This document shows positions 12,822 to 19,792 of a stretch of 20,473 nucleotides of DNA, piece after piece (positions within the stretch are counted from its first letter, which is position 1; each line of letters begins with the position of its first letter). Position numbers and translations under genes: made by a program. Below the pieces are notes generated by a model that saw only the letters and a list, made by a program, of their open reading frames with translations, did not search any database and was not told the DNA's origin. The stretch lies in NCBI RefSeq assembly GCF_003334315.1, contig NZ_QOWR01000068.1. One strand, written 5' to 3'. Source of the stretch: Escherichia coli (lineage in GTDB: Bacteria; Pseudomonadota; Gammaproteobacteria; Enterobacterales; Enterobacteriaceae).

Positions 12822-12873
12822 CATAGATAATCATTGGATGGCACAATCAATTTTCGCTAATGATAACCATTCC
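12822..12873 (+). promoter_or_regulatory. Fur-box-like sequences around the yddA start
   Basis: GATAATCATT at 12826-12835 and AATGATAACCATT overlapping the start codon, compared with the Fur consensus GATAATGATAATCATTATC. Confidence 0.35.
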
Positions 12874-14545
12874 CATTACGCTTCGTATGTTGATAGCAAA
12901 GTATCTCTGTCTGTTGAAGCCCTTTTGGCTGCGTAAGAATAATAAAACTTCAGTGTTGTTAATCATTATTATCCTCGCAATGATCCTTGGCGTGGTTAAA
13001 ATTCAGGTCTGGTTAAACGACTGGAATAATGATTTTTTCAATGCGCTAAGCCAGAAAGAAACCGATAAGCTTTGGCAGCTTGTCCTTTGGTTCCCTGCCC
13101 TGCTGGGGATCTTTGTATTAATATCCGTAAACAAAACATGGTTAATTAAACTGCTGACTATTCGCTGGCGCGAATGGTTAACAGATTACTACCTTAATCG
13201 GTGGTTTGCAGATAAAAACTACTACTTCACGCAGATCTACGGCGAGCATAAAAATACAGATAACCCTGACCAACGTATCGCTGAAGACATTCTCTTACTG
13301 ATCAGCAAAACGCTCAGTCTTTCATTTGGCTTCATCCAGTCACTTAGCATGCTGATCACCTTTACCGTTATTCTTTGGCAAAGCGCGGGTACGCTCTCAT
13401 TCACTGTTGGTGGAACAGAATGGAATATCCAGGGGTATATGGTCTATACCGTCGTGCTCATTGTGATCGGTGGAACTTTATTTACCCATAAGGTGGGTAA
13501 ACGTATTCGTCCGCTTAATGTGGAAAAACAACGTAGCGAAGCGACATTTCGAACAAATCTTGTGCAGCATAATAAGCAGGCAGAACTGATTGCGCTAAGC
13601 AATGCTGAGTCTCTACAACGCCAGGAGTTGAGCGACAATTTTCATACCATTAAAGAGAACTGGCATCGTTTAATGAATCGTCAGCGGTGGCTTGATTACT
13701 GGCAGAATATTTATTCGCGCTCGCTTAGCGTTCTTCCCTACTTTCTGTTATTGCCGCAGTTTATTAGCGGGCAGATCAATCTGGGCGGACTGATGAAATC
13801 GCGCCAGGCATTTATGCTGGTATCGAACAATTTAAGCTGGTTTATTTATAAATATGACGAACTTGCTGAACTGGCTGCGGTTATCGATCGCTTGTATGAG
13901 TTCCATCAACTCACTGAACAGCGCCCTACGAATAAGCCTAAAAATTACCAACATGCGGTACAAGTGGCTGATGCGAGTATTCGTACGCCTGATAATAAGA
14001 TCATATTAGAGAACCTGAACTTTCATGTTTCGCCAGGCAAATGGCTATTACTGAAAGGCTACTCTGGTGCGGGAAAAACCACACTGCTTAAAACATTATC
14101 CCACTGCTGGCCGTGGTTTAAAGGTGATATTTCTTCTCCTGCTGACAGTTGGTATGTGTCACAAACACCGTTAATCAAAACCGGCTTACTGAAAGAGATT
14201 ATTTGTAAAGCACTTCCCCTGCCCGTAGACGATAAATCGTTGAGCGAAGTACTGCATCAGGTTGGTCTTGGGAAATTGGCTGCGCGTATTCATGACCACG
14301 ATCGCTGGGGAGATATTCTTTCCAGCGGCGAAAAACAACGTATCGCCCTGGCACGATTAATTTTACGACGTCCGAAATGGATATTTCTTGACGAAACTAC
14401 CTCTCATCTTGAGGAACAAGAGGCTATCCGCTTACTGCGTTTAGTGCGTGAAAAACTACCCACAAGCGGCGTCATTATGGTTACACATCAACCCGGTGTC
14501 TGGAACCTGGCCGATGATATTTGTGACATTAGCGCGGTTTTATAA
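12860..14545 (+). CDS. yddA: fused ABC transporter permease/ATPase (SbmA/BacA-type membrane domain), 561 aa
   Basis: Hydrophobic N-terminal half; Walker A GYSGAGKTT; ABC signature LSSGEKQR; Walker B WIFLDETTS. Confidence 0.88.
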   Translation: MITIPITLRMLIAKYLCLLKPFWLRKNNKTSVLLIIIILAMILGVVKIQVWLNDWNNDFFNALSQKETDKLWQLVLWFPALLGIFVLISVNKTWLIKLLTIRWREWLTDYYLNRWFADKNYYFTQIYGEHKNTDNPDQRIAEDILLLISKTLSLSFGFIQSLSMLITFTVILWQSAGTLSFTVGGTEWNIQGYMVYTVVLIVIGGTLFTHKVGKRIRPLNVEKQRSEATFRTNLVQHNKQAELIALSNAESLQRQELSDNFHTIKENWHRLMNRQRWLDYWQNIYSRSLSVLPYFLLLPQFISGQINLGGLMKSRQAFMLVSNNLSWFIYKYDELAELAAVIDRLYEFHQLTEQRPTNKPKNYQHAVQVADASIRTPDNKIILENLNFHVSPGKWLLLKGYSGAGKTTLLKTLSHCWPWFKGDISSPADSWYVSQTPLIKTGLLKEIICKALPLPVDDKSLSEVLHQVGLGKLAARIHDHDRWGDILSSGEKQRIALARLILRRPKWIFLDETTSHLEEQEAIRLLRLVREKLPTSGVIMVTHQPGVWNLADDICDISAVL

Positions 14546-14582
14546 AAACAATAAAAGCCCTGCTGTACGGAGATATAAATAA

Positions 14583-16952: not shown

Positions 16953-16996
16953 TAGTTCGGATTTTACTTAACCGGGTAAATTCGCCCGGTTTTCGC

Positions 16997-19792
16997 ATGG
17001 AGATAATTATGAGAAACCTCTGTTTCTTACTGACGTTAGTGGCAACTCTGTTGCTCCCCGGGCGGCTGATTGCCGCCGCCTTACCGCAGGATGAAAAGTT
17101 AATTACCGGGCAACTGGACAATGGCTTGCGATATATGATTTATCCGCATGCTCATCCAAAGGATCAGGTAAATTTATGGCTGCAAATTCATACCGGTTCA
17201 TTGCAGGAAGAAGACAATGAGCGCGGCGTGGCTCATTTTGTAGAACATATGATGTTTAACGGCACAAAAACATGGCCGGGTAATAAAGTCATCGAAACAT
17301 TTGAGTCAATGGGCCTGCGTTTTGGTCGCGATGTTAATGCCTATACCAGCTATGACGAAACGGTGTATCAGGTGAGTTTGCCGACTACGCAGAAACAAAA
17401 TCTGCAACAAGTGATGGCAATCTTCAGTGAATGGAGTAATGCCGCCACCTTTGAAAAACTCGAAGTAGACGCTGAACGTGGCGTAATTACTGAGGAATGG
17501 CGTGCCCATCAGGATGCGAAATGGCGCACCTCTCAGGCGCGCCGCCCTTTCCTGCTGGCTAATACCCGTAATTTAGACCGTGAACCTATCGGCCTGATGG
17601 ATACTGTCGCCACGGTCACACCGGCACAATTGCGCCAATTTTATCAACGCTGGTATCAACCCAATAATATGACCTTTATCGTGGTCGGCGATATCGACAG
17701 TAAAGAAGCGCTGGCGCTGATAAAGGATAATTTAAGTAAGCTTCCGGCTAACAAAGCAGCTGAAAATCGCGTCTGGCCGACAAAAGCTGAAAATCACCTG
17801 CGCTTTAATATCATTAATGATAAAGAAAACCGGGTGAACGGCATCGCACTCTATTATCGCCTGCCAATGGTACAAGTGAACGATGAGCAAAGCTTTATCG
17901 AACAAGCTGAATGGAGCATGTTAGTTCAGCTGTTCAATCAACGTCTGCAGGAACGCATACAGTCGGGCGAGTTGAAGACTATTTCTGGCGGCACTGCGCG
18001 CAGCGTTAAAATTGCACCCGATTATCAGTCGCTGTTTTTCCGTGTAAATGCACGAGACGATAATATGCAGGATGCTGCGAATGCATTAATGGCAGAGTTG
18101 GCAACCATTGATCAGCATGGTTTTTCTGCTGAAGAACTCGATGATGTCAAATCTACCCGCCTCACCTGGCTGAAAAATGCGGTTGATCAGCAAGCTGAAC
18201 GTGATTTACGTATGCTGACCAGTCGCCTGGCATCCAGCTCATTAAATAATACGCCGTTCTTGTCGCCGGAAGAGACATATCAACTTTCGAAACGTCTGTG
18301 GCAGCAAATTACCGTGCAAAGTCTGGCGGAAAAATGGCAGCAGTTAAGAAAGAACCAGGACGCATTTTGGGAGCAAATGGTAAACAATGAGGTTGCCGCC
18401 AAAAAAGCATTGTCTCCTGCGGCTATCCTGGCGCTGGAAAAGGAGTACGCCAACAAAAAGCTGGCGGCTTACGTCTTCCCAGGCAGAAATTTATCGTTAA
18501 CAGTAGACGCAGACCCACAGGCGGAAATTAGCAGCAAAGAAACGCTGGCGGAGAATCTGACATCATTAACACTTTCCAATGGTGCCAGGGTTATTCTGGC
18601 AAAATCCGCGGGTGAAGAGCAAAAGCTACAAATTATTGCCGTATCGAATAAAGGCGATTTAAGTTTCCCTGCGCAGCAAAAATCACTTATCGCGCTGGCA
18701 AATAAAGCAGTTAGCGGAAGCGGCGTTGGCGAACTCTCCTCTTCCAGCCTGAAACGCTGGAGTGCGGAAAATTCGGTAACCATGAGCAGTAAAGTCAGTG
18801 GCATGAATACGTTGCTCTCCGTTAGCGCGCGGACTAATAACCCTGAACCTGGTTTTCAGTTGATTAACCAGCGAATCACCCACAGCACGATTAACGATAA
18901 TATTTGGGCATCGCTACAAAATGCTCAAATTCAGGCGTTGAAAACGCTCGACCAGCGTCCAGCGGAGAAATTCGCCCAGCAGATGTATGAGACGCGCTAT
19001 GCTGATGACCGCACGAAATTACTGCAAGAAAATCAGATTGCACAGTTTACTGCCGCAGATGCGCTGGCTGCCGATCGCCAATTGTTTTCATCTCCAGCGG
19101 ATATCACGTTTGTCATTGTCGGTAATGTCGCAGAAGACAAACTCGTGGCGTTAATTACGCGTTACTTAGGATCAATCAAACACTCTGATTCGCCATTAGC
19201 CGCAGGTAAACCATTAACTCGCGCGACGGACAACGCATCGGTTACTGTAAAAGAACAAAATGAACCTGTGGCACAGGTTTCACAGTGGAAGCGTTATGAT
19301 TCCCGGACACCTGTTAATCTGCCGACGCGTATGGCGCTCGATGCTTTTAACGTCGCACTGGCAAAAGATCTACGCGTTAATATTCGTGAACAGGCATCTG
19401 GGGCATACAGCGTTTCTTCTCGCCTCTCGGTTGATCCTCAGGCCAAAGATATCAGTCATTTGCTGGCTTTTACTTGTCAACCAGAACGACATGATGAACT
19501 GTTAACGTTAGCGAATGAAGTGATGGTTAAGCGTCTGGCTAAAGGGATCAGTGAGCAAGAACTGAATGAATACCAGCAAAACGTTCAGCGCAGCCTCGAT
19601 ATCCAACAGCGTAGCGTTCAACAATTAGCGAACACCATTGTAAATAGTCTTATTCAATATGACGATCCTGCAGCATGGACTGAGCAGGAGCAATTGTTGA
19701 AACAAATGACGGTAGAGAATGTTAACACTGCCGTTAAACAATATCTTTCTCATCCGGTAAATACTTATACCGGAGTATTATTGCCAAAATAA
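16997..19792 (+). CDS. pqqL: periplasmic M16-family zinc metallopeptidase, 931 aa
   Basis: Signal peptide; inverted zinc motif HFVEH (HxxEH) near residue 80; recognised sequence; 44 bp after yddB. Confidence 0.9.
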   Translation: MEIIMRNLCFLLTLVATLLLPGRLIAAALPQDEKLITGQLDNGLRYMIYPHAHPKDQVNLWLQIHTGSLQEEDNERGVAHFVEHMMFNGTKTWPGNKVIETFESMGLRFGRDVNAYTSYDETVYQVSLPTTQKQNLQQVMAIFSEWSNAATFEKLEVDAERGVITEEWRAHQDAKWRTSQARRPFLLANTRNLDREPIGLMDTVATVTPAQLRQFYQRWYQPNNMTFIVVGDIDSKEALALIKDNLSKLPANKAAENRVWPTKAENHLRFNIINDKENRVNGIALYYRLPMVQVNDEQSFIEQAEWSMLVQLFNQRLQERIQSGELKTISGGTARSVKIAPDYQSLFFRVNARDDNMQDAANALMAELATIDQHGFSAEELDDVKSTRLTWLKNAVDQQAERDLRMLTSRLASSSLNNTPFLSPEETYQLSKRLWQQITVQSLAEKWQQLRKNQDAFWEQMVNNEVAAKKALSPAAILALEKEYANKKLAAYVFPGRNLSLTVDADPQAEISSKETLAENLTSLTLSNGARVILAKSAGEEQKLQIIAVSNKGDLSFPAQQKSLIALANKAVSGSGVGELSSSSLKRWSAENSVTMSSKVSGMNTLLSVSARTNNPEPGFQLINQRITHSTINDNIWASLQNAQIQALKTLDQRPAEKFAQQMYETRYADDRTKLLQENQIAQFTAADALAADRQLFSSPADITFVIVGNVAEDKLVALITRYLGSIKHSDSPLAAGKPLTRATDNASVTVKEQNEPVAQVSQWKRYDSRTPVNLPTRMALDAFNVALAKDLRVNIREQASGAYSVSSRLSVDPQAKDISHLLAFTCQPERHDELLTLANEVMVKRLAKGISEQELNEYQQNVQRSLDIQQRSVQQLANTIVNSLIQYDDPAAWTEQEQLLKQMTVENVNTAVKQYLSHPVNTYTGVLLPK

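Follow-up and report, generated by a model that had tools for sequence, protein, structure and literature searches.

The Fep, Fhu, Fec and Chu systems of Escherichia coli are Fur-repressed and combine a TonB-box barrel with an ATP-binding cassette (ABC) step at the inner membrane; they use a periplasmic binding protein and a binding-protein-dependent ABC importer, without any periplasmic protease. The operon yddA-yddB-pqqL, analysed here in a stretch of 20,473 nucleotides from E. coli (contig NZ_QOWR01000068.1 of assembly GCF_003334315.1; this whole stretch is called the window, and all coordinates refer to it), is like them in Fur repression, barrel and inner-membrane ABC step, but it has no binding-protein gene and carries instead a type IV fused ABC protein and an M16 protease. 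It also resembles the FusA-FusB-FusC-FusD (Fus) system of Pectobacterium, with which it has in common a FusA-type receptor, a four-domain protease of the M16 family and a fused ABC protein (YddA being a FusD homologue, PMC5095587), as well as iron-dependent expression and clustered, co-oriented genes. The two differ in gene order, ABC-receptor-protease in E. coli and fusB-A-C-D in Pectobacterium, and the identity between YddB and FusA is low, at about 24%.

YddB, PqqL and YddA were named homologues of FusA, FusC and FusD in 2016, and it was argued then that genes kept together despite rearrangement have an integrated function (PMC5095587). In 2019, the structures of YddB and PqqL were solved and the term “protease-associated import systems” was coined (PMC6793856). 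Between 2013 and 2015, the genes had been found to be co-transcribed, controlled by Fur, induced in urine and of value for fitness in bacteraemia. The locus, its regulation, two of the three structures and the import hypothesis have all been published before. A sequence-only reading of the window had already picked out the pairing of a TonB-dependent receptor with a periplasmic M16 protease as the architecture of protease-associated import; that observation is real and correctly read, with YddB resembling FusA and PqqL resembling FusC as in the published model, yet it restates published knowledge. We give a probability of about 65% to the reading in which the operon is a Fur-repressed Fus-type protease-associated import system for a small iron-containing protein, the import function itself being put forward as a hypothesis.

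The three open reading frames (ORFs) are the following:

12860-14545, + strand: yddA ORF, 561 aa
14583-16952, + strand: yddB ORF, 789 aa
16997-19792, + strand: pqqL ORF, 931 aa

All three are co-oriented in the ORF list, with gaps of 37 bp between yddA and yddB (14546-14582) and 44 bp between yddB and pqqL (16953-16996), exactly the coordinates and gaps given in the sequence-only reading. Over the 8-kb operon stretch, E. coli chromosomes match at about 100% identity and 100% coverage (megablast); there, yddA is annotated as an ABC transporter ATP-binding protein/permease, yddB as a TonB-dependent receptor plug domain-containing protein and pqqL as an M16 family metallopeptidase. The locus is the E. 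coli operon yddA-yddB-pqqL, which is well documented and iron-regulated.

Receptor, protease and transporter

We identified the proteins from Pfam domains, sequence matches to the PDB and the annotation of E. coli. YddB matches PDB entry 6OFR over residues 29-789, and its only other relative in the PDB is FusA (4ZGV, E 3e-78); Pfam finds the Plug domain (2.9e-6). The protein begins with a signal-peptide-like stretch (MKR...AQA), has a TonB-box-like EEMTVYA close to this end and finishes with a Phe. No NCBIfam model was matched, the curated siderophore-receptor models included. Judged by these matches, YddB is a FusA-family TonB-dependent outer-membrane transporter, and its published structure is that of a TonB-dependent barrel, structurally FusA-like, with a large extracellular binding site (PMC6793856). 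The version encoded in the window has 789 aa where the common form has 790, owing to a one-residue in-frame deletion accompanied by a Q-to-R change in the plug region (NR-D versus NQGD, 14838-14843); five further substitutions separate it from the common form.

PqqL matches first PDB entries 6OFS and 6OFT and then FusC (6B03, 6B05 and 6BRS; E 1.6e-58 for 6B03), with which it is colinear over residues 9-930. Pfam recognises one Peptidase_M16 and two Peptidase_M16_C domains, corresponding to one active and two inactive M16 domains; the HxxEH zinc site reads HFVEH (residues 80-84), and the N-terminus is hydrophobic. These features identify PqqL as a FusC-like single-chain M16 zinc protease. Published work describes a periplasmic protein with a cleaved signal peptide and an active zinc protease of narrow specificity, which cuts short peptides carrying an F/Y-F/Y-V/A motif; the cavity enclosed by PqqL, like that of FusC, has room for a small globular protein (PMC6793856).

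The gene was named pqqL for complementing pqq mutants of Methylobacterium (work cited in PMC3855560), and one could accordingly take the protein for a PqqF-like protease of pyrroloquinoline quinone (PQQ) biosynthesis with unrelated neighbours. PqqL does match the PqqF model TIGR02110, weakly, but with 48.5 bits against a cutoff of 320; no pqqABCDE genes occur in the 34-kb annotated neighbourhood of the operon, E. coli makes no PQQ according to the literature cited in PMC3855560, and PqqL is colinear with FusC over its full length and has a solved structure of its own. We rejected the PQQ-biosynthesis reading on the TIGR02110 score and the lack of pqq genes nearby, and consider its chances negligible.

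YddA carries the Pfam domains ABC_membrane_2 (1.8e-43), SbmA_BacA (2.4e-33) and ABC_tran (2.8e-18), and its ATPase motifs are intact (Walker A GYSGAGKT, signature LSSGEKQR, Walker B IFLDE, H-loop THQ). Its closest solved structure is Rv1819c (6TQE/6TQF, E 2.2e-67, residues 34-552). The domains and the match to 6TQE agree with the earlier suggestion of an SbmA/BacA-like fused ABC partner, and YddA is best described, on its domain content, as a type IV ABC protein that joins an SbmA/BacA-like membrane domain and an ATPase domain in one chain. Rv1819c of Mycobacterium tuberculosis is a type IV ABC protein importing cobalamin and bleomycin, and the lasso peptide ubonodin needs the YddA of Burkholderia cepacia for entry. 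YddA gives its name to a family that a 2026 paper calls “of unknown function”, with Rv1819c as the closest structural homologue, the BclA clade nested inside the YddA clade and SbmA as a derivative that lost the ATPase domain (PMC13316013).

With BclA, Rv1819c and the other importers of this group, E. coli YddA has in common the fusion of an ABC_membrane_2/SbmA_BacA membrane domain with an ATPase domain. Rv1819c, BclA and the YddA of B. cepacia, however, import cobalamin, bleomycin or peptides as stand-alone proteins, whereas the operon of E. coli YddA also encodes an outer-membrane receptor and a protease; SbmA and BacA, unlike YddA, are without an ATPase domain and are driven by the proton gradient (PMC13316013). 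Inward transport by E. coli YddA would follow solely by analogy with such relatives. One has to keep in mind that the type IV fold is common to many exporters, that NCBIfam gives sub-threshold partial matches (and no others) to CydDC and to type I secretion ABC proteins, and that one transcriptome table labels yddAB “Multidrug transporter”; YddA could then be an exporter, either separate from YddB and PqqL or secreting a factor later retrieved by YddB. We hold this to be improbable: the membrane domain is ABC_membrane_2/SbmA_BacA, while the generic exporter domain ABC_membrane is not significant in Pfam (E about 2), import is the function of the closest solved relative and of those studied functionally, the neighbourhood holds neither a gene for a secreted factor nor one for an outer-membrane efflux partner, and in 33 of 36 loci the ABC gene is co-inherited with receptor and protease, in three gene orders, as described below.

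Transcription and Fur control

The regulatory signals around the operon, given here in order of position, comprise a promoter candidate, two matches to the Fur consensus and three hairpins:

12620-12651, + strand: terminator hairpin after ydeM (RNA fold: 12-bp stem, dG −18.6, then UUUCGUC)
12818-12847, + strand: sigma-70-like promoter candidate (TTGCCA, 18-nt spacer, CACAAT, extended TG; 9/12 in a consensus scan)
12856-12874, + strand: Fur-box-like site GCTAATGATAACCATTCCC, 15/19 positions of the consensus GATAATGATAATCATTATC, at the yddA 5' end
12958-12976, − strand: second Fur-consensus match (candidate), 14/19 positions, inside the 5' part of yddA
16970-16991, + strand: hairpin in the yddB-pqqL gap (RNA fold: dG −12.8, running into UUUUCGC)
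19799-19829, + strand: terminator-like hairpin after pqqL (10-bp GC-rich stem-loop at 19799-19823, dG −18.6 kcal/mol, then AUUUUA)

When both strands of the 20.5-kb window are scanned with the 19-bp consensus, GCTAATGATAACCATTCCC is the single best Fur match, and the second best sits 100 bp downstream of it. The site coincides with the putative Fur box of PMC3855560, where yddA, yddB and pqqL all escaped repression in a fur mutant and rose more than 30-fold in urine. Repression by Fur, bound upstream of yddAB-pqqL, has been described together with a positive effect of RyhB on the RNA level (PMC4676285); the Fur iModulon includes yddA (PMC10164565), and both bipyridine and urine induce the PqqL protein (PMC6793856). 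The operon is Fur-repressed and its expression responds to iron, as in Fus-type systems. The hairpin after ydeM marks the upstream boundary of the transcription unit, so that yddA needs a promoter of its own.

Amplicons from reverse transcription PCR (RT-PCR) bridge both junctions of yddA-yddB-pqqL in strain CFT073 (PMC3855560), and yddAB-pqqL is handled as one Fur-bound operon in PMC4676285. The single transcription unit proposed from the gaps between the genes is, therefore, supported by experiment. At the 3' end, the stem-loop begins seven bases past the pqqL stop codon; it was recovered by RNA folding and missed by our consensus terminator scan because its U tract is short. The sequence-only reading had placed a good terminator after pqqL and nowhere else: the former is present, while the yddB-pqqL gap holds a weaker hairpin as well. 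The gap hairpin has an identical stem in two loci from other Escherichia clades (L005 and L006), and a third (L007) retains the CCGGG/CCCGG core. Its possible roles are partial attenuation and RNA stability; it at most attenuates, since the published RT-PCR shows read-through at this junction.

This small hairpin followed by UUUU, together with one study listing pqqL apart from yddAB among serum-induced genes, might be taken to mean that the three genes are merely adjacent, that is, independently transcribed and functionally unrelated. The RT-PCR products spanning both junctions contradict it, as do the like responses of all three genes to urine and to the loss of Fur (PMC3855560) and the conservation of the triad in Enterobacterales, Orbales, Shewanella, Pseudomonas and a Sutterellaceae genome despite rearrangement; we rejected it on the junctions and the conserved triad, as having next to no chance of being right.

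Conservation and proposed import function

We aligned 26 YddB homologues and scanned one genome per species, which gave 279 confirmed loci; the best 80 of these 279, species-representative and with 10-kb flanks searched by tblastn, were examined. A PqqL-like M16 protease and a YddA-type membrane domain occur together in 33 of the 80 loci, and 42 have neither. The protease comes without a YddA-type gene in three (one of them on an 8-kb contig), and a YddA-type gene without the protease in two (one on a truncated contig, the other with the ABC gene 9 kb off). A YddA-type gene is, thus, present in 33/36 protease-bearing loci (Fisher p about 1e-16, a value that overstates independence, as many loci are from Pseudomonas). 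Within a triad, the genes share one orientation and lie close together, stop codons often overlapping the next start; three gene orders occur:

ABC-receptor-protease: Escherichia, an Enterobacteriaceae metagenome-assembled genome (MAG), Orbaceae ESL0727
receptor-ABC-protease: Gilliamella, Frischella, Shewanella, a Sutterellaceae MAG
receptor-protease-ABC: Pseudomonas

The triad of Shewanella carassii (L038 6199-9839) adjoins divergent ExbB/ExbB/ExbD/TonB genes and that of Pseudomonas abyssi (L071 7895-9466) comes after FecI/FecR-like sigma/anti-sigma genes; none of the ExbB/ExbD/TonB or FecI/FecR genes is annotated in the 34 kb surrounding the E. coli operon. On one contig placed in a “Candidatus Nanosynbacter” MAG (L008), yddA and yddB are 98-100% identical to those of E. 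coli; the contig is probably a binning contaminant.

Neither the M16 protease nor the YddA-like ABC gene accompanies the receptors of Achromobacter, Bordetella, Alcaligenes and Corticibacter (L004, L011-L032), the Corticibacter locus (L011) included. In the single locus of this kind viewed closely, that of Achromobacter seleniivolatilans (L004), we found FecI/FecR genes, an STN domain in the receptor and a gene for a di-haem peroxidase (CCP_MauG). Such FusA-like receptors paired with FecI/FecR (in Achromobacter, Bordetella and others) are 30-34% identical to YddB and differ from it in their N-terminal STN signalling domain, their sigma/anti-sigma genes and the CCP_MauG gene; the arrangement of FecI/FecR with a di-haem peroxidase is known from PMC6793856.

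Of 5426 complete E. coli genomes, 4604 hold 80% or more of the operon; the others comprise 802 with less than 80% and 20 without any match. In the partial cases sampled, ydeM is joined straight to a 3' remnant of pqqL, the deleted segment corresponding to window positions 12570-18875. Two junctions were seen among them, one leaving a remnant of 918 nt (L002 7000-7917) and the other of 1158 nt (L085 4006-5163); the operon must, therefore, have been lost by two or more independent deletions. Repeated loss agrees with a niche-specific, dispensable function.

According to the import reading, YddB would bind, under iron limitation, a small protein that contains iron and stems from the host or from the gut community and, powered by the housekeeping TonB-ExbBD, move it into the periplasm; PqqL would close round the imported protein and cleave it; a YddA dimer, using ATP, would then carry the freed cofactor or cofactor-bearing peptides to the cytoplasm. 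The operon would be one of few candidate systems importing whole proteins across the Gram-negative outer membrane. It aids the fitness of uropathogenic E. coli in bloodstream infection, yddB and pqqL mutants having fitness defects in mouse bacteraemia (PMC3855560).

Several observations weigh against this reading. About 15% of complete E. coli genomes are without an intact operon, which is, thus, dispensable. The CFT073 transcripts do not respond to dipyridyl alone (PMC3855560). Deletion of yddB or pqqL causes no growth defect in iron-limited lysogeny broth, even in a strain without other iron receptors (PMC6793856), whereas the uptake of an iron-sulphur protein by Fus is characterised. Plant ferredoxin, the Fus substrate, is not cleaved by PqqL, and neither are human ferredoxins or globins (PMC6793856). 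No substrate of PqqL is named in the searched papers on PqqL (2020 onward) and on protease-associated import, and a December 2025 review of M16 proteases enters it as n/a (PMC12731061), which bears out the sequence-only reading, where no natural substrate could be given. Lastly, with a FusA-like receptor, a FusC-like M16 protease with its HxxEH site, a FusD-like ABC protein and a response to iron, the operon has the parts of a Fus-type system except for the dedicated TonB homologue FusB, which is absent from the operon and its 34-kb annotated neighbourhood; FusB is not universal among homologous clusters.

The main rival to iron-protein piracy is the uptake and degradation of peptides: YddB and YddA would import antimicrobial peptides, microcins or nutritional peptides, PqqL would degrade them in the periplasm, and Fur control would mirror the host environment and nothing more. 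Relatives of YddA do import peptides or bulky hydrophilic compounds, as seen for ubonodin (B. cepacia YddA), the BclA clade and Rv1819c; Fus, however, as the only characterised homologous system, imports an iron-sulphur protein for iron. Likewise, PqqL cuts short F/Y-F/Y-V/A peptides and none of the iron proteins tested, although the cavity of PqqL and FusC suits a small globular protein. The lack of an iron-related growth phenotype in the mutants speaks for peptides, and the bacteraemia fitness defect would suit defence against host peptides equally well, while direct Fur regulation and a Fur-box-like site speak for iron, and the pairing of the protease-less related receptors with FecI/FecR and a di-haem peroxidase points to iron or redox cofactors. 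Weighing these points, we regard peptide uptake as unlikely and prefer the import of an iron-containing protein.

The nature of the cargo at the inner membrane can be approached through conservation. In 28 distant triads (L033-L083), the median identity to E. coli is 37.5% for the membrane domain of YddA and 38.8% for its ATPase domain, whereas receptor and protease stand lower, with medians of 27.8% and 23.5%, respectively. We infer that this fits a receptor and a protease diverging with their prey while the inner-membrane cargo stays similar; the contrast is a point that the related papers covered do not state. The YddA membrane domain being, next to receptor and protease, the best-conserved part of these triads hints at a tentative reading, in which the inner-membrane step would handle a product common to all triads and the receptor and protease would track different prey. 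As part of the same reading, this product might be a cofactor still on its proteolytic peptide, or the peptides themselves, and not free iron or a free cluster; again tentatively, it might be carried by a transporter with a BacA/Rv1819c-like cavity. If this is true, YddA/FusD would be a dedicated importer of peptide-bound cofactor, an activity that we found for no ABC transporter in the literature covered.

Start codons and neighbouring sequence

Assigning initiation codons was not straightforward for two of the genes. In pqqL, two in-frame ATGs lie 12 nt apart, at 16997 and 17009 (window 16997-17011). The second is probably the start, because a GGAG lies just upstream and RefSeq uses it; it gives a protein of 927 aa and a gap of 56 bp after yddB. 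The yddA start is ambiguous (window 12860-12889), and no Shine-Dalgarno sequence is recognisable before either candidate. The annotated ATG at 12860 adds nine N-terminal residues found in no homologue, and homologues start about 11 residues ahead of a conserved KPFW motif; the alternative ATG at 12887 (Met10) appears to fit the homologues better than 12860. With this start, the Fur-box-like site would sit 13 nt upstream and not over the start codon.

In E. coli, the operon is flanked by ydeM upstream and gadB downstream, the latter starting at 20145, 316 nt beyond the terminator that follows pqqL. No Rfam family was matched anywhere in the window. The G+C content of the operon is 43.5-46.8%, with a window mean of 43.8%; as a mark of recent transfer, we found low G+C uninformative, most neighbouring genes being similarly low. 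RefSeq also annotates a 40-codon gene, “protein YneP”, on the − strand at about 12535-12657, antisense over the end of ydeM and over the hairpin that terminates it.

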